IMG/VR virus record: IMGVR_UViG_3300024255_000005
Direction: 5' to 3' (one strand)
Length of the DNA stretch: 20,000 nucleotides
From: an uncultured virus (IMG/VR IMGVR_UViG_3300024255_000005)
Lineage: Duplodnaviria; Heunggongvirae; Uroviricota; Caudoviricetes
The position numbers and the translations under genes were made by a program. Positions within the stretch are counted from its first letter, which is position 1. Each line of letters opens with the position of its first letter. The notes beneath the pieces are model-generated. The model had not been told where the DNA came from, did no database searches, and saw nothing but the letters and a program-made list of their open reading frames with translations. Positions 2,615 to 18,191 of the stretch are shown in pieces.

Positions 2615-3169
2615 ATGGCTTTACCACACTATTCACAAGATCAAACTAGTAAGGCGGGTAGACAATTCGAACCAGTACAAGGAAACTTATTTGAGGTAAC
2701 TATTTTACCTCCTGCTGGAGTTGCTGATGCACCGTTATTACTTCAACATGTTAACACTGTTAGCGGGTTGGAATTATATAAAGCACCTGGAGAGGTAGCA
2801 CAGAAATACAAATTCTCTTCACGTTCATACGCTGGAATGCCAGATGATACTACACTTACAGTGGGTATTAACTTTTCGTTAAATTTAAACGAGGCAAACC
2901 AAGCTTATTTATATAAAACAATGAGACAATGGTATAACTTAGCTTACGATCCACAAACTGGGGTAATGGGCTTAAAGAAAGACTATACCGGAACAATCGT
3001 AATCGTACAATTCAATAGAGCTGGAGATATTTACAGAACTATAACATTAGAAGATTGCTGGATTAATTCTGGACTTCCATTCACTAACGACTTAAGTTAT
3101 GAATCTCCAGAAGCTGCTGCTTTAGAAGTAACATGGAAATGTGATACCTTTAAAGAAGTATTAGCTTAA
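2615..3169 (+). CDS. Tail tube protein (T4 gp19-like)
   Basis: 184 aa directly after the sheath. Motifs FEP..NLFEV, MRQWYNL.YDPQTG.MGLKKDY.GTI.I.Q, TLEDCW and L.VTW..D are typical of gp19-like tubes. Confidence 0.88.
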   Translation: MALPHYSQDQTSKAGRQFEPVQGNLFEVTILPPAGVADAPLLLQHVNTVSGLELYKAPGEVAQKYKFSSRSYAGMPDDTTLTVGINFSLNLNEANQAYLYKTMRQWYNLAYDPQTGVMGLKKDYTGTIVIVQFNRAGDIYRTITLEDCWINSGLPFTNDLSYESPEAAALEVTWKCDTFKEVLA

Positions 3170-3180
3170 TTTATTAAAAG

Positions 3181-3212
3181 TAGGACGACCTTAATTGGCT
3201 CGTCCTATTTTT
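3181..3212 (+). terminator. Rho-independent terminator
   Basis: TAGGACGA-CC-TTAATT-GG-C-TCGTCCTA stem followed by TTTTT, right after the tube stop codon. Confidence 0.85.
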
Positions 3213-3214
3213 AT

Positions 3215-3471: not shown

Positions 3472-4434
3472 ATGAGCGAAGACAAAAACAACCCAGTTGA
3501 CCTTGACCAGCAATATAAAGCTATGATAGAGGATAACGAAAACAATGCACCTGTAGAAGCTGAAGAACCAGTTGATCTAGGAAAGGTGGACATGAATAAG
3601 TTTAAACCACAGGAAGCTAAGGAAGCAGATTTCCATTTAGGATATCATAGTGTTTCTCATGCTGAACTTCCTTCAGGTGGAATGTTCTATAATGAAAAAT
3701 CAGAAATTTCTATTAGAGCTGCAAAGGTTTCAGAAATTAGACACTTTTCTACAGTAGACGAGAATAATGTACTAGATATTGATGAAAAATTAAATAACAT
3801 AATTGAATCATGTGTAAGAATTACATCCGGATCTAAAAGAATGTCGTATAGAGATATTTTAGAGGAAGATAGATTCTATTTAGTTTTAGCTATTAGAGAT
3901 CTTACTTTCCCAGAACCTGAAAGTCAATTGACAGTTCCTTATCAAGATAAAAAAGGAGGAAGACACACTGTTGAAGTAAGTAAGAAATATTTTCAATATT
4001 TTAAAATACCAGCAGAATTAGATAAGTATTATGATCAGGAATCTAAGAGTTTTAAAATTGAAACAAAATCCTTTGGTATAATTGAAATGACTCCACCTAG
4101 TATCGGGGTTATGCAAAAAATGACTAAACATATTAAAGATAAGCAGGAAAAAGGAGAAATAGCAGATCAATCTATTCTACAAATAATTCCTTATATCGTA
4201 AATGATTGGAGACAATATACTGATAAGACTATCTTTAATTTTGAAATGGAAGTTAATGGTTGGTCAAATAAGAAATATAGTTTAGTATACAAATTAGCAG
4301 AAAAATTAAAAGTCGGAATCCAGCCTGAGATGTTGGTACCGCACGAGGATGACGAGGTCCTCGTTCCGATTGGGTTTCGTGACGGAATCAAATCTTTATT
4401 CATTGTTCAAGATCTCTCTGGAGAACTTCTTTAA
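3472..4434 (+). CDS. Baseplate hub / tail assembly protein (T4 gp26-like)
   Basis: Motifs LPSGGMFY, ISIRAAKVSE and DILEEDRFYLVLAIRDLTF. Located between tube and tape measure genes. Confidence 0.7.
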   Translation: MSEDKNNPVDLDQQYKAMIEDNENNAPVEAEEPVDLGKVDMNKFKPQEAKEADFHLGYHSVSHAELPSGGMFYNEKSEISIRAAKVSEIRHFSTVDENNVLDIDEKLNNIIESCVRITSGSKRMSYRDILEEDRFYLVLAIRDLTFPEPESQLTVPYQDKKGGRHTVEVSKKYFQYFKIPAELDKYYDQESKSFKIETKSFGIIEMTPPSIGVMQKMTKHIKDKQEKGEIADQSILQIIPYIVNDWRQYTDKTIFNFEMEVNGWSNKKYSLVYKLAEKLKVGIQPEMLVPHEDDEVLVPIGFRDGIKSLFIVQDLSGELL

Positions 4435-4651
4435 AACGAAGTTTCATATCTATAGAGTCTTACATGTACAACCTTCCGAATTGGAAAACATGGATTATTA
4501 TGAATTTTACTATCTCGTAAAAGATCTAACTGATCATTTACAGAAAGAAAATGAAGCTAATAAGGGACAACAAGAACAAAGTGAACAGATGCAACAGAAT
4601 ATGAAAATTCCAAAAATGAATATTCCAAAAATATCAGTTCCTAAATTATAA
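4349..4651 (+). CDS. Small tail/baseplate assembly protein overlapping the gp26-like gene in the +1 frame; start uncertain (ATG 4349, TTG 4403, or frameshift fusion)
   Basis: SLENFFKTKF...PSELENMDYYE resembles the small ORF that follows gp26 in T4-like phages. It overlaps the upstream gene by 86 nt if ATG 4349 is used. Confidence 0.6.
   Translation: MTRSSFRLGFVTESNLYSLFKISLENFFKTKFHIYRVLHVQPSELENMDYYEFYYLVKDLTDHLQKENEANKGQQEQSEQMQQNMKIPKMNIPKISVPKL
4601..4645 (+). repeat. 3 x 15-nt degenerate tandem repeat encoding MKIPK/MNIPK/ISVPK
   Basis: atgaaaattccaaaa, atgaatattccaaaa, atatcagttcctaaa. Confidence 0.75.
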
Positions 4652-4657
4652 TAAACT

Positions 4658-4695
4658 TTAAAGGAATAATGGGAACTGTCCCGTTATTCCTTTAA
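4658..4695. terminator. 17-bp hairpin (terminator or processing site)
   Basis: TTAAAGGAATAATGGGA-ACTG-TCCCGTTATTCCTTTAA with one G-U pair, immediately after the stop at 4651. Confidence 0.75.
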
Positions 4696-4978: not shown

Positions 4979-7708
4979 ATGGCCAATAACGCAAAGGACA
5001 ACATACTGTTATCTCCTTTACAGAGGATAGCTAAGGCAAGTGAAAATACAGACAATAAAATGTCTGCTGTCGCGTTAGGCGTAGATGTTCTAATCAAGGG
5101 TAGCGATAATGTTAAAAGTATCTTAGAAAGACAAACTGATGTATTATTAGATATTAAGACTGCAATTACAGATTTACATAATGATATTAAGGGAGGCAAG
5201 GCAGCTGGTAAAGCAGGAGGAGAAAAAGGAGGCTTTGGCCTTGGAGGTGCTGCTAAGCTAGGAATTATGGTAGTGTTAGCCGCTGGTGCTGTTACACTCG
5301 CTTCTTTTATTATGCAAGGAATTGCTCCAGTTTCGGTTGCTCAGTTAGCAACAGCCATTCTTATATCACTTGCATTAATTCCATTGGTTAAAGCAATGGT
5401 AGAAATGTTAATGTTACTTTCACCCGTCAGAGGGTTGGGTTTCATGGCAGGTAAATTTGCGATATCTAAATTTGGAGGAGCAGCTGGTAAAAGTGCACTA
5501 GGTCCAGGTGGAGATGAAATGTCTAAAAATGGAGCGATGAAAATGGCATTTATGGTTGTATTAGGTGCAGCTGTATTAATAACTGTTTCAAGTTATATTT
5601 TATCAGTAGTAAAACCCGTTGAATTAAAGAAATTAATATCAGCCGCTGTAATAGGATTTGCACTACAACCTATGGCAATGGCATTTTTAGGTGTCGTAAT
5701 GGCATTAAAGAAGGGCGGAATAGGAATGGATAAAAATGGAGCAAAAACAATAGCAATGTCGATGTTAGTTATGGTAGCAATTACACTTGCAATAGCAGGT
5801 GTCGCAGGAGCCATGGCCATGATGCCAGCAACCTTTATCGAAGGACCTCCATTAGATTGGATTTTTATGACAGGGTTAATGCTTTTTGTTTTTTCAATTC
5901 CACTTTCTATAATATTAAGATCGGTCAAAGGATTAAATCTTAAACAAATGATATTTGCTTCACTTGCAATACCATTAATAGCTTTAGCAATTGCTGGAGT
6001 TTCTTACGCAATGGAAGGATTAAGCGGTAATTATGTGGCTCCACCTGCATCATGGACTCTAAAGGCAGGTTTTGCTCTTTTCGTATTTTCTATTCCATTA
6101 GTGATGGTATTAAGAAGTATTAAAGGAAAAACATTAAAGGAGATACTTTATGCATCTTTAGCCGTCCCTTTACTTGCGGGTACTATTGTTGCTGTAGCTT
6201 TAATGTTTACTTTTTTAGAAAAAGTAAAGGCATATAATGCACCCCCAGCAAAATGGACTTTAAAGGTAGGTTTGGCTATGGCAGTGTTTGGTATAGCATT
6301 TTATTTTATTTCTAAAGCAACTCGATCAATGGGTATAAAGGAAATTGCACTTGCAGCATTAGCCATGGGATTCATAGCTTTAGGTATATTAGCAGTCGCA
6401 TTCATATTCCAATATCTACCAGATGAATTTAAAACAGTCCCGGTTGAATGGTCATTAAAAACAGGATTAGCAGTAGCTATCTTTGGTCTTGGGTTTATGA
6501 TAGTAGTTAAACTGATGAAAACATTTGGAGTTGGCCTTAAAGATTTGGCAATGGGACTAGTCGGCATAGTAGCGATCGGTATCGCAGTACTTGCAACTGC
6601 ATGGATATTCTCAGTTTTACCAGGAAGTTTTGTACCAATACCAATTGAATGGACTATTGGCGCTGTGTTTGCTATTTCTGCATTTGCAGTTCCACTTGGT
6701 GTCGTTGGCTTAATTGCTACATCAGGTGTAGGTGCTGCAGCATTAGGATTAGGTGCCCTTGGTATGATATTATTAGCAGGTACTATATGGGCAGTTGCTT
6801 GGATATTTAGCAAATTACCAGATTTAGGAGCAATTGGTAAAAATTTCACAAATATGTTATTAGCTCCTGTTAACGGAATGATAGATTCATTTGTTAGAAT
6901 AAAAGAAGAACTTGGAATAGAAAATTTAGGAGCCCTAGGCGCTGGTTTAGTTTCAATTGCAGGTGGTTGGTTAGCATTAGTTGGTGCATTGGCTGGACAA
7001 GCAGCTGGCGATCTAGTAACTGGCGCATTGGGTGCCGGTAAAAAAGTTCTTGATTTTGTGTCATTCGGATTGACTGCAACAGAAGGACCGTTTGAAGTCT
7101 TAGATAAATTAATAAGCAGAAGAAAGGGTATTACTAGTTTAGGACCAGCTGTGGCTGCTGCCGGAAGAGGTTTTGCAGAATTATCTAAATATCAAAGCAA
7201 AGGAGTTAAAGCTCTTAATGCACTATTACCATTCTCTAACGAATGGAGAGTAAAATACTTAAGAAGTTCGGCAACACATGTTGGAACGCTTGCTAAAAAT
7301 TATGGCCTATTGGCAAAACAATCCAATAAGATGAATGTTGGTGCAATCAACGCAACCACAAGGATGTTCGATTCTTTACGTAAATTAGCAGAACAGGATA
7401 ATAATCCAATGAAAGTCCTAGCTGATGATCTGTTAAAAGCAGTTGCAGAATTATCAACTGCAGTTGACGCCCTGGATAAAGCAGTTGCTAGACAAGGTAA
7501 AACTTCTGGCGAAGCCACTAGTGTAATTGGTAAGGCACTTAATAGAGTTAAAGATCTAGTCACGAGCAATACTGAAGAAGTTAAAAAGAATACTCCAAAA
7601 GGAGGAGCTCCTAAAATGGACTTCTCTCCAGTCGTTGACGCCATATCAGAGTTAGAAGAAACATTAACCTCATCTGGAATTAAAGTTAAAAGGAATTCAG
7701 GTTGGTAA
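4979..7708 (+). CDS. Tape measure-like protein with hydrophobic repeats
   Basis: 909 aa, Ala/Gly/Leu-rich and helical, with coiled-coil-like ends and Trp-anchored repeats at 65/67-aa spacing. Canonical position downstream of tube and chaperone genes. Confidence 0.75.
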   Translation: MANNAKDNILLSPLQRIAKASENTDNKMSAVALGVDVLIKGSDNVKSILERQTDVLLDIKTAITDLHNDIKGGKAAGKAGGEKGGFGLGGAAKLGIMVVLAAGAVTLASFIMQGIAPVSVAQLATAILISLALIPLVKAMVEMLMLLSPVRGLGFMAGKFAISKFGGAAGKSALGPGGDEMSKNGAMKMAFMVVLGAAVLITVSSYILSVVKPVELKKLISAAVIGFALQPMAMAFLGVVMALKKGGIGMDKNGAKTIAMSMLVMVAITLAIAGVAGAMAMMPATFIEGPPLDWIFMTGLMLFVFSIPLSIILRSVKGLNLKQMIFASLAIPLIALAIAGVSYAMEGLSGNYVAPPASWTLKAGFALFVFSIPLVMVLRSIKGKTLKEILYASLAVPLLAGTIVAVALMFTFLEKVKAYNAPPAKWTLKVGLAMAVFGIAFYFISKATRSMGIKEIALAALAMGFIALGILAVAFIFQYLPDEFKTVPVEWSLKTGLAVAIFGLGFMIVVKLMKTFGVGLKDLAMGLVGIVAIGIAVLATAWIFSVLPGSFVPIPIEWTIGAVFAISAFAVPLGVVGLIATSGVGAAALGLGALGMILLAGTIWAVAWIFSKLPDLGAIGKNFTNMLLAPVNGMIDSFVRIKEELGIENLGALGAGLVSIAGGWLALVGALAGQAAGDLVTGALGAGKKVLDFVSFGLTATEGPFEVLDKLISRRKGITSLGPAVAAAGRGFAELSKYQSKGVKALNALLPFSNEWRVKYLRSSATHVGTLAKNYGLLAKQSNKMNVGAINATTRMFDSLRKLAEQDNNPMKVLADDLLKAVAELSTAVDALDKAVARQGKTSGEATSVIGKALNRVKDLVTSNTEEVKKNTPKGGAPKMDFSPVVDAISELEETLTSSGIKVKRNSGW

Positions 7709-7718
7709 TTCCAACTTT
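7699..7718 (+). terminator. Possible terminator hairpin overlapping the tape measure stop codon
   Basis: AGGTTGG-TAATT-CCAACTT followed by T; the stem is short. Confidence 0.4.
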
Positions 7719-7722
7719 AACT

Positions 7723-7750
7723 GAAACAACCCCCTCTTATTTAGTATAAT
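7723..7750 (+). promoter_or_regulatory. Putative promoter GAAAC-N17-TATAAT
   Basis: GAAAC 7723-7727 and TATAAT 7745-7750; recurring motif. Confidence 0.6.
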
Positions 7751-7755
7751 TAATA

Positions 7756-7771
7756 GTTCTTTGACAGCTAT
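7756..7771 (+). promoter_or_regulatory. boxA-like element and 5' arm of a long-range RNA stem
   Basis: GTTCTTTGACAGCTAT resembles rrn boxA (E. coli TGCTCTTTAACA) and is complementary to 8147-8162. Confidence 0.6.
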
Positions 7772-7793
7772 ACTTAAAAATAAACACAAGTAT

Positions 7794-8123
7794 ATGGAAA
7801 CAACTATTATTACATTCGGTCTGGGTGTGGTGCTAACTCTAATTATTTTAGGCGTAGTGTCATTGTTCAGGTCAACTAAAAAAATCAGTGAATTAGATTC
7901 GTTGATTAATCACATCGAAAGCGATATTCAAGGTAGAATAGATTCAGTCGAGCACTATTTAGATAATTGTATAGATGATCTAGATAGAAGATTAGATTCT
8001 AGAGTAGATAGAGCAATTTCTCAATTTGAGAAAGAAATAGAAGAAATGGATTTAAGATTAGATAAAATTATTGATAGTTTTAATCTTCAAAAATCCAAAG
8101 AAAAGGAAAACATTCCTAATTAA
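7794..8123 (+). CDS. Single-pass membrane protein with acidic coiled-coil tail
   Basis: ATG 7794 after an A-rich leader is more plausible than TTG 7761. Hydrophobic helix IITFGLGVVLTLIILGVVSLF, then heptad-like IDDLDRRLDSRVD and MDLRLDKI. Confidence 0.8.
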   Translation: METTIITFGLGVVLTLIILGVVSLFRSTKKISELDSLINHIESDIQGRIDSVEHYLDNCIDDLDRRLDSRVDRAISQFEKEIEEMDLRLDKIIDSFNLQKSKEKENIPN

Positions 8124-8146
8124 TTTAAATAAATAAACATTAACCC

Positions 8147-8162
8147 ATAGTTGTTAAAGAAT
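8147..8162 (+). other. 3' arm of the long-range RNA stem
   Basis: ATAGTTGTTAAAGAAT pairs with 7756-7771 (13 Watson-Crick + 3 G-U pairs). Confidence 0.6.
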
Positions 8163-8163
8163 A

Positions 8164-8248
8164 GGAGAAGTGGCAGAGTGGTCGAATGCACTGGTCTTGA
8201 AAACCAGCGAACTTCACGGTTCCAGGGGTTCGAATCCCTTCTTCTCCG
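8164..8248 (+). tRNA. tRNA-Ser (anticodon UGA)
   Basis: Acceptor GGAGAAG/CTTCTCC, anticodon arm CTGGT-CTTGAAA-ACCAG, long variable arm, T-loop TTCGAAT, discriminator G. Followed by CAA, so CCA is not encoded. Confidence 0.96.
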
Positions 8249-8253
8249 CAATT

Positions 8254-8330
8254 GGTCTGGTAGTTCAGTTGGTTAGAATACATGCCTGTCACGCATGGGG
8301 TCGCGAGTTCGAATCTCGTCCAGACCGCCA
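8254..8330 (+). tRNA. tRNA-Asp (anticodon GUC)
   Basis: Acceptor GGTCTGG/CCAGACC, anticodon arm CATGC-CTGTCAC-GCATG, T-loop TTCGAAT, encoded CCA end. Confidence 0.97.
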
Positions 8331-8337
8331 CTCAGAG

Positions 8338-8362
8338 AAGCACATGAAACATTGTGCTTTTT
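8338..8362 (+). terminator. Terminator after the tRNAs
   Basis: AAGCACA-TGAAACAT-TGTGCTT followed by TTT. Confidence 0.6.
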
Positions 8363-8373
8363 GGGGGTATAAC
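8346..8373 (+). promoter_or_regulatory. Putative promoter GAAAC-N17-TATAAC overlapping the terminator
   Basis: GAAAC 8346-8350 sits in the hairpin loop; TATAAC 8368-8373. Confidence 0.55.
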
Positions 8374-8394
8374 TAATATAGAAAACAATTTAAA

Positions 8395-8631
8395 ATGAGA
8401 AAAGTACACAGAGGTAGTCGAGGAATGGTCGCTGGAGTATGTGATGGTTTAGGATATTATTTTGGAATTGATCCATTAATATTTAGACTTTTATTCACAT
8501 TAGCATTCTTTACACCTACAATTCCAGCAATATTAATATACATTATATTTTGGATAGTAATACCAGCAAATAAAAAAACAAAAACAAATGACAAGAGCGC
8601 AAATAGTTCAAAAACTACTAGACGAAAATAA
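8395..8631 (+). CDS. pspC: PspC domain membrane protein
   Basis: Classic PspC pattern R....MVAGVCDGLGYYFGIDPLIFRLLF...ILIYIIFWIVIP. Confidence 0.9.
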   Translation: MRKVHRGSRGMVAGVCDGLGYYFGIDPLIFRLLFTLAFFTPTIPAILIYIIFWIVIPANKKTKTNDKSANSSKTTRRK

Positions 8632-17591: not shown

Positions 17592-18191
17592 ATGGCTACC
17601 TACAAACAACTAACTCAAAACTTTCTAGAAACAGGATCAGATCAAGACTTCGCAGCTCTTTACAACAAGATAAAGCCGGGTCTAACTTCGTACATTTACA
17701 AAATAGTTAAAGATCGTGAAATGGCAGAAGACATTGCAGTAAACACATTAACTAAGATGTGGACCAAAATCGAACAATATAACCCAAGTTACGGAATTAC
17801 TACTTGGTTATATAGAATCGCATTTAACGACTCTTTAGGTTATATTAAAAAAAGAAATCAAACTACGTCTTTGAGTAAATTATCAGAATATGGCGTAGAA
17901 ATAAGTGGCGCTGGATCAGTTTCAAATACTCTAAAAGATTTAGTCTTAGATCATGAAGAAAAAACTGAACAAGATTATCTAGAAGAAGATGACGCTCTTC
18001 AAGACAAATACATTAAAACTCTAGAAGCTATGCAAAATCTAAAAGAAATGTACAGAGACATCTTAGTAGACAGAATGGTAAATCATATGAAATACGATCA
18101 GCTAGCTGATAAATATAAACTTCCACTTCAAACTATTAAGAATAGAATCCGTAGAGGTAAAGCTTTAATCGTTGAAGCTGTAGAAAAATAA
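17592..18191 (+). CDS. RNA polymerase sigma factor, ECF/sigma-70 group 4-like
   Basis: Region 2: DFAALYN, AEDIAVNTLTKMW, TTWLYRIAFN. Region 4 HTH: MKYDQLADKYKLPLQTIKNRIRRGK. Confidence 0.92.
   Translation: MATYKQLTQNFLETGSDQDFAALYNKIKPGLTSYIYKIVKDREMAEDIAVNTLTKMWTKIEQYNPSYGITTWLYRIAFNDSLGYIKKRNQTTSLSKLSEYGVEISGAGSVSNTLKDLVLDHEEKTEQDYLEEDDALQDKYIKTLEAMQNLKEMYRDILVDRMVNHMKYDQLADKYKLPLQTIKNRIRRGKALIVEAVEK

Follow-up and report, generated by a model that had tools for sequence, protein, structure and literature searches.

Why are the two ends of a short phage message complementary to each other, and why does one of these ends carry a sequence that a group of bacteria places in front of its 23S ribosomal RNA (rRNA)? 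The question is raised by the unit at positions 7723-8362 of a 20,000-nucleotide (nt) stretch of DNA, hereafter the window, from an uncultured tailed virus (IMG/VR record IMGVR_UViG_3300024255_000005). The unit consists of a promoter-like element, a small protein-coding gene (the cargo) enclosed by two complementary strands, two transfer RNA (tRNA) genes, and a terminator-like hairpin. The untranslated ends of the cargo mRNA form a conserved, covarying + strand RNA helix, whose leader strand carries the same box as the tRNA-Ala/23S spacer of sampled Flavobacteriales genomes. This helix is bounded on its 5' side by a promoter, the stop codon of an open reading frame (ORF), or a tRNA, and on its 3' side by tRNA-Ser or a terminator hairpin. 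On balance, we lean towards reading 7723-8362 as a unit of phage transcription and RNA processing laid out in the manner of a host pre-rRNA, with the mechanism itself inferred. Its parts are the following.

7723-7750, + strand: promoter-like element, GAAAC (7723-7727), 17 nt, and TATAAT (7745-7750), predicted by consensus scan
7756-7771, + strand: 5' (leader) strand of the helix, GTTCTTTGACAGCTAT, seen in sequence, fold, conservation, and covariation
7756-7766, + strand: boxA-like box, GTTCTTTGACA, the first 11 nt of the leader strand
7772-7793, + strand: A-rich leader between the helix and the start codon, without a Shine-Dalgarno sequence and unpaired in the centroid fold
7794-8123, + strand: cargo ORF of 109 amino acids (aa), an N-terminal transmembrane helix followed by an acidic coiled coil
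8124-8146, + strand: 3' untranslated spacer from the stop codon to the trailer strand, nearly invariant in close relatives
8147-8162, + strand: 3' (trailer) strand of the helix, ATAGTTGTTAAAGAAT
8164-8249, + strand: tRNA-Ser (anticodon tga), called by ARAGORN and by Rfam RF00005 (61 bits)
8254-8330, + strand: tRNA-Asp (anticodon gtc), called by ARAGORN and by Rfam RF00005 (68.3 bits)
8338-8362, + strand: terminator-like hairpin with a 7-base-pair (bp) stem and an 8-nt loop, then TTT, read from the sequence

Pairing between 7756-7771 and 8147-8162 covers 16 of 16 positions, with 13 Watson-Crick and three G-U pairs (pairs 1, 8, and 12), and loops out 375 nt (7772-8146) that hold the cargo as their single ORF. 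The leader strand starts 5 nt after the end of TATAAT, and 1 nt separates the trailer strand from tRNA-Ser. These features confirmed an earlier description made without database searches, here called the sequence-only reading, which had reported the uninterrupted duplex, its position after a putative promoter, and the transmembrane and coiled-coil nature of the looped-out product. Folding of 7751-8165, which that description had proposed as a check, returned the helix in both the minimum-free-energy and the centroid structures, with z = -3.83 and 0 of 100 shuffles as stable. It had also made its claim depend on such pairings being uncommon in shuffled intergenic sequence, and in block shuffles of the window they are not. 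G-U-tolerant helices of at least 16 bp within 600 nt occur three times on the + strand and once on the - strand of the whole window, and fully paired 16-mers number four in the window and 2.5 on average in 15 block shuffles (one or more in 13). In one sequence alone, the helix is not beyond chance for an AT-rich window; what lifts it above chance is where it lies and, still more, how it is conserved and covaries in relatives.

The window and 33 related loci make up a close set of 34 sequences, 18 of them distinct. Both arms are present in 16 of the 18, and each of these 16 pairs over 16-17 bp; in L033, the sequence breaks off within the ORF. Every arm substitution in the close variants retains + strand pairing. 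Specifically, pair 12 changes from G-U to A-U, pair 8 from G-U to A-U (L031), and pair 1 from G-U to G-C (L001), while changes at pairs 6, 7, and 9 produce U-G or G-U (for example, U-A to U-G). The next position inward, a 17th pair, is an unpaired A/C in the window, G-C in L006 and L025, G-U in L023, and A-U in L028. A variant on a metatranscriptome contig, 7770 A>G, again yields G-U. In L030 (821-2295), the promoter, the leader arm, and most of the ORF run into unrelated sequence with neither trailer arm nor tRNA; this locus could be a chimera or a rearranged variant. A DNA search of cultured phages with 7600-8450 returned tRNA matches only, and a locus search with the tape-measure C-terminus alone returned close relatives only.

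An alignment-based search disclosed 20 distant loci whose cargo is 29-40% identical to the window protein. Complementary flanks of 10-20 bp enclose the gene in 20 of 20, in agreement with the sequence-only reading, which had expected complementary, covarying flanks in homologues. The distant loci add seven further helix sequence types, giving eight in all with the window lineage. Their leader and trailer strands are given here in that order.

L286: AAGGCTCTTTGGC and GTCAAAGAGTCTT, 13 bp, extended to 20 bp with a 1-nt bulge
L287, L288: CTAGTTCTTTAGCC and GGCTAAAGGACTAG, 14 bp, abutting tRNA-Ser on the 3' side
L291-L293: TAGTTCTTTAGCCTAAG and TTTAGGCTAAAGGACTA, 17 bp, with tRNA-Ser 1 nt on in L292 and L293; the sequence of L291 stops there
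L294 (on the contig of L149): TTCTTTAGCCAAGAAT and ATTCTTGGCTAAAGAA, 16 bp, all Watson-Crick, with tRNA-Ser 4 nt on
L295-L301: TTCTTTAGTCGAG and TTCGACTAAAGAA, 13 bp, with a terminator as 3' boundary
L289, L290 (on the contigs of L117 and L114): GTTCTTT and AAAGAAC, a 3-nt bulge, then ATTACGGT and ACCGTAAT, 7 + 8 bp, with a terminator
L302, L303: ACGATTATCGTTCTTTG and CAAAGAACGGTAATCGT, 17 bp, in a unit that begins 2 nt 3' of a tRNA-like gene
L304, L305: ATGTTGTCGC and GCGACAACAT, 10 bp, without the box, with a terminator as 3' boundary

Two of these loci have unusual tRNA surroundings. Immediately 3' of the trailer strand of L286 lies a tRNA-like start (1585-1650) that ARAGORN did not call. 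In L302, the helix-enclosed gene sits within a tRNA cluster: a tRNA-like gene (1070-1146, given no anticodon by ARAGORN) lies 2 nt 5' of the leader strand, and a T-run and another tRNA-like sequence (1580-1660) lie 3' of the trailer strand.

Across nine representative lineages, the energies of the own duplexes range from -17 to -27.5 kcal/mol. Shuffles of the 3' flank reached the own-duplex energy in 0 of 300 trials in eight lineages and in 1 of 300 in L292, and in a cross table of flanks the own 3' flank was the best partner in seven of nine rows. Compensatory double changes fall in columns 0, 7, 8, 9, 10, 11, 12, 14, and 15 of a table anchored on the TTCTTT/AAAGAA core. Covariation was read from such motif-anchored tables by our own scripts, in place of formal pair counting or a covariance model; in both whole-unit MAFFT alignments, the 3' arms of L289 and L302 were misplaced and that of the window lineage was split. 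As a control, 79 unrelated viral loci with TATAAT, 3-6 nt, and GTTCTTTGA gave no anchored helix longer than 13 bp in the following 660 nt (80 loci were examined among at least 117 matching stretches, and 79 of the 80 were unrelated). Complementary, covarying flanks around the cargo were thus found in 16 of 16 complete close variants and 20 of 20 distant loci.

The pattern of mismatches bears on the level at which this pairing is maintained. Internal non-Watson-Crick positions are G-U on the + strand in all helices and A-C in none, and past the helix ends pairing does not resume after a single A-C. The + strand duplex is the stabler one in six of nine lineages, by 9-12 kcal/mol where several G-U pairs occur. 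Gene orientation and synteny are constant across all loci examined, two lineages have bulges (3 nt in L289, 1 nt in L286), and the cassette holds no transposase, recombinase, or other enzyme gene by Pfam and PHROG. Taken together, the G-U-only mismatches, strand stability, constant orientation, lack of an enzyme gene, and bulges favour selection on the + strand RNA over a DNA-level repeat, and the sequence-only argument from the G-U positions holds.

The leader strand is also defined by its sequence. The gamma-proteobacterial boxA consensus, GYTCTTTAANA in the sections available from PMC5725501, is matched by the window at 10 of 11 positions and by L031 at 11 of 11. The host probably belongs to Flavobacteriales. 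In the 16S-23S spacers of 10 Flavobacteriales genomes, G[TA][TA]C[TA]TTGACA occurs exactly once per 5.1-kb rrn segment, in all 10 after tRNA-Ile and tRNA-Ala and before 23S. The spacer box reads GTTCTTTGACA, the window 11-mer, in four genomes, and GTTCATTGACA in three, GATCATTGACA in two, and GTACATTGACA in one, these six being one to two positions off the window. Within the 20-kb window, the same pattern occurs once on both strands together, at 7756. The comparison with the spacer boxes bears out the earlier proposal that the 5' arm resembles rrn boxA. The match is thus to the consensus of the presumed host group, and the box is positioned 5 nt after the -10 box at the very start of the long-range helix.

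Comparable positions were seen in the likely host order. The 5' strand of the 23S-enclosing helix begins inside the box or at most 2 nt after it in 6 of 10 genomes, with its partner ~2.9-3.1 kb downstream (for example, TTTGACATTTTGGACA with TGTCCGGAATGTCAAA in L330, and TTGACATATTGAGAGT with GCTCTCGATATGTTAA in L338), and the sampled Flavobacteriales 23S stalk segments are uninterrupted over 12-20 bp. Among 17 16S leaders of the order, one of which offered only 37 nt of sequence to scan, eight contain GTTCTTT[AG][AG] adjoining the leader-trailer stalk, six of these boxes ~80-106 nt and two ~257 nt upstream of 16S; two further leaders read GTTCTTTGC. In the phages, seven of eight helix types retain the box but differ in the remainder of the helix, the match to the host-type box extends over 15 nt in L302, and relatives whose equivalent ORF is without a helix are also without the box. 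Two other readings of this sequence were rejected. A Bacteroidetes-type -7 promoter box in the leader arm was a poor fit on inspection by eye. A noncoding box repeated throughout the genome was likewise discarded: TTCTTTRACA occurs 11 times in the 176-kb relative G002, and the other 10 sites are without the promoter-plus-arm context and mostly lie inside ORFs (FFD/FFN codons).

Sheath matches, an RmlC copy, and the translation leaders suggest that the host is likely a member of Flavobacteriales/Bacteroidota. Of the listed cultured phages, those with the best-matching sheath (33-42% identity) infect Tenacibaculum, Flavobacterium, Prevotella, and Sphingomonas. The phage RmlC is 91% identical to a copy from a Flavobacteriales metagenome-assembled genome; the 4.5-kb contig that carries this copy (L306, G003) is probably a piece of phage DNA that entered the bin together with its host or because of its composition. 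Weaker RmlC matches are mostly from Bacteroidota. Leaders of the helix-bearing loci have no Shine-Dalgarno sequences.

Positioned around the helix are elements that would define the ends of a transcript. A -10 box precedes the leader strand by 2-5 nt in four helix types (window, L289, L286, and L304), and beyond the trailer strand lies either tRNA-Ser at 0-4 nt or a terminator hairpin at 5-7 nt. Between the helix and ATG, the leader measures 19-31 nt in nine of nine representative lineages. The window hairpin at 8338-8362 was not called by the terminator scan (too few T), and it is kept in relatives, of which L028 and L031 have one A-T pair replaced by T-A through a double change; its loop contains GAAAC. 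In more distant phages, a transmembrane/coiled-coil ORF occupies the same site with the next ORF directly after it and with neither helix nor box; the helix-bearing family may be related to these ORFs (hhalign probability 58.6%).

According to the preferred reading, transcription would start at ~7756, and the nascent boxA would be bound by host NusB/NusE (S10), converting RNA polymerase into a fast, Rho-resistant antitermination complex of the rrn type. Tethering of boxA to the polymerase would keep the 5' end close to the RNA exit until the trailer strand is made ~390 nt later and the helix closes. Closure would bury boxA and end the polymerase modification just before the tRNAs and the terminator. 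A cut by RNase P at tRNA-Ser (8163/8164), possibly with RNase III cutting in the helix, would then free a monocistronic message with both ends base-paired, hence shielded from end-dependent decay, and with the A-rich leader and start codon left open for translation. This accessible start region makes it improbable that the helix silences translation. The sequence-only reading had likened the layout to a mini rRNA operon (promoter, boxA, stem-closed cargo, tRNAs, and terminator), and the covarying flanks in homologues together with the identity of the arm to the 23S spacer box support this likeness. In its most specific form, which we put forward tentatively as a possibility, Bacteroidota phages would disguise one mRNA as a pre-23S: a host-type boxA would load the rrn antitermination complex, which would fold the 5' end onto the trailer in the way known for rRNA, and closure would self-limit antitermination before the tRNAs or terminator and give an end-clamped, possibly RNase III-trimmed message.

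The steps are modelled on Escherichia coli rrn as treated in portions of PMC10250234, where leader-trailer helices are cut by RNase III and boxA tethering is proposed to promote helix formation.

Several points weigh against this reading. According to the same paper, the E. coli pre-16S helix needs more than 17 bp, and the pre-23S helix has 27 bp. The phage helix measures 16 bp in the window, reaches 17 bp in some variants, and spans 10-20 bp across lineages, which makes RNase III cutting uncertain. The box is fully double-stranded in the final fold and single-stranded only during the ~390 nt of transcription before the trailer strand, and NusB/NusE bind single-stranded RNA, so any role of Nus factors must be co-transcriptional. 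Some lineages have no promoter right upstream: the leader strand follows an ORF stop in L287/L288 and L291-L293 and a tRNA in L302/L303, and there the arm is not the primary 5' end and could become a 5' end only by processing. The 10-bp helix of L304/L305 has no box. In three of four metatranscriptome runs, a contig extends from the tape-measure gene over the promoter as far as 8191, meaning read-through transcripts or DNA carry-over. The host assignment adds its own uncertainty, and the reading offers no reason why this particular protein should be handled in such a way. Finally, the recruitment of Nus factors, the RNase III cuts, and the protection of the ends are inferred steps.

Among the alternatives, one holds that the helix is an end clamp only, whose paired termini block 5'-end-dependent and 3' exonucleolytic decay, with the likeness to boxA incidental or serving another factor. 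Paired 5' and 3' ends slow mRNA decay, and in every lineage the helix lies at the predicted transcript ends, 2-5 nt after the -10 box in four types and 0-4 nt before tRNA-Ser or 5-7 nt before the terminator hairpin. The helix also persists without the box in L304/L305, and it is missing from relatives that have no 3' end of their own, the next ORF following directly on the equivalent ORF. A local 5' hairpin would nevertheless be simpler and equally protective, and pairing alone hardly explains why the box is kept in seven of eight types and is identical to the 23S spacer box of the host order (with a match of up to 15 nt, in L302). We regard clamping alone as unlikely, though worth keeping in mind.

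Type I toxin mRNAs such as hok and aapA1 also pair their 5' end with their 3' end and encode a membrane protein. By analogy, the sequence-only reading had suggested that the pairing silences a toxic membrane protein, and one could picture the mRNA of a harmful protein kept stable and untranslated until 3' processing removes the trailer. The N-terminal transmembrane helix of the cargo and the RNase P cut site at the tRNA, which adjoins the trailer strand, agree with this picture. The start site, however, is free: 19-31 nt separate ATG from the helix, and the centroid fold leaves the A-rich leader unpaired. Nor would a cut by RNase P detach the trailer strand from the mRNA. The product, of 109-144 aa with a long soluble coiled coil, is unlike type I toxins, which are very small and hydrophobic and come with a cis antisense RNA; no such RNA is known for the unit, where no search aimed at one was made. 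Moreover, the leader strand is a copy of boxA. The analogy fits poorly, and we consider such a lock highly improbable.

Still less credence goes to a DNA-level inverted repeat, in the form of terminal repeats of a mobile cassette, recombination sites of an inversion switch, or paired operator half-sites. The sole arrangement resembling a site without the cassette comes from L131 (9300-9430), L140 (13440-13577), L142, and L144, relatives with a 78-79% identical tube protein, in which 8-9 nt lead from the promoter to tRNA-Ser(tga), and the small gene, the box, and the helix are all absent; the window cassette lies exactly between the -10 box and the tRNA. The outermost bases are also the most conserved in several lineages. 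Against this stand the internal mismatches, all G-U on the + strand and hence C-A on the - strand, the bulges of L289 and L286, the one orientation and synteny of all loci, and a cassette devoid of transposase and recombinase. In addition, the helix reaches outward past the conserved box in L287, L292, and L302, and no target-site duplication is visible in the window. Chance complementarity in AT-rich sequence, with G-U-tolerant 16-bp helices as common in block shuffles as in the window, counts as refuted by conservation and covariation over eight types, the 3'-flank shuffles, and the 79-locus control.

The cargo itself combines the N-terminal transmembrane helix with an acidic coiled coil that carries repeated D-x-R-[IVLT]-D motifs. 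Closer homologues are 63-100% identical, with P0016 and P0017 at 63-69%, and lengths range from 109 to 144 aa. No Pfam or PHROG family matched above cut-off, and the Atlas returned only viral hypothetical clusters, plus a weak lead (0.84) to a Mu releasin-like family. A search with Rfam gave the two tRNAs as the only hits above threshold. What the helix encloses is a conserved protein-coding ORF, in place of the rRNA of known leader-trailer systems.

Parts of the stretch are present in 18 metatranscriptome RNA runs. Four runs were examined as contigs, a form in which transcript starts, ends, and strand are not resolvable. The only contig joint listed falls inside tRNA-Ser, in one contig of one run, so these contigs lend no support to circular or back-joined forms of the message.

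Comparison with known systems places the rrn spacer boxA and the pre-23S leader-trailer helix closest. The phage unit itself falls outside this family, since it encloses an ORF and any cleavage or Nus binding is predicted. The two share the same box (GTTCTTTGACA in 4 of 10 genomes) at or just before the 5' strand of a cargo-enclosing helix, tRNA genes in the same transcript, and a covarying helix with G-U pairs. They differ in that the phage cargo is a translated 109-aa ORF of ~0.4 kb, compared with a 2.9-kb rRNA; the phage helix covers the whole box, whereas in rrn only its 3' part is paired or the helix starts at most 2 nt later; and the phage tRNA follows the helix and does not precede the box, except in L302/L303.

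Boxes of the suhB type, as described in the sections of PMC5725501 available, likewise stand in 5' untranslated regions within ~50 nt upstream of a protein-coding start codon. Those sections report Nus factors acting outside rRNA in gamma-proteobacterial hosts and conclude that the regulation at suhB is repressive; the boxes there do not belong to an ORF-enclosing 5'-3' helix. The nut sites of phage lambda (boxA, boxB, boxC, and protein N) are also phage transcript elements with a boxA, which there recruits host Nus factors; in contrast, the phage box of the window has no adjacent boxB hairpin and no N-like protein was identified, and nut is without a long-range helix in what PMC10250234 covers of it. 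The 5' and 3' untranslated regions of a single mRNA also pair in icaR of Staphylococcus aureus, where, in the portion of PMC3868564 available, the pairing controls icaR translation; the phage pairing lies at the message extremes, 19-31 nt upstream of the start codon. Among open-licence PubMed Central papers and bioRxiv, no description of such a unit was found.

The surroundings of the unit are those of a large tailed phage, whose relatives are contigs of 160-180 kb. The following genes of the window locate the unit.

113-2578: tail sheath gene
2615-3169: tail tube gene
4979-7708: tape-measure-like protein of 909 aa
8395-8631: PspC-domain membrane protein of 78 aa (Pfam E = 6.6e-18), directly after the unit
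17592-18188: sigma-like protein

The tape-measure-like protein has a long central region with repeated hydrophobic Gly/Ala-rich segments and matches no PHROG family. Downstream of the unit, genes for the PspC-domain protein, a nuclease, an RmlC-type epimerase, kinases, and the sigma-like factor follow. The arrangement of GAAAC, ~17-20 nt, and TATAAT or TATAAA recurs 3' of the tape-measure gene and 3' of terminators (window, L100-L143, and L289-L305), the position 3' of the tape-measure gene extending to other related lineages as well; it may represent a phage-specific promoter class. Local hairpins of 17 bp (4658-4695) and 14 bp (3175-3213), just 3' of ORF 4349-4651 and of the tube gene, respectively, are probably terminators.

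Regarded until now as devices of rRNA synthesis, rrn boxA and leader-trailer helices are found here around a translated gene in many uncultured marine phages, and the succession of box, helix, and then tRNA or terminator offers annotators a signature. If phages do disguise an mRNA as a pre-23S, a leader-trailer helix would for the first time be known to act for a protein-coding message, and a virus would borrow host rRNA machinery in a new way. If the preferred mechanism holds, the rrn antitermination/chaperone complex would prove redirectable to mRNA. The unit would then also provide a natural, compact model (~0.4 kb) for asking whether boxA tethering drives long-range helix formation. For the phages of Bacteroidota, a group whose RNA biology is little studied, it would mean a new form of control over the synthesis, processing, and stability of a message.

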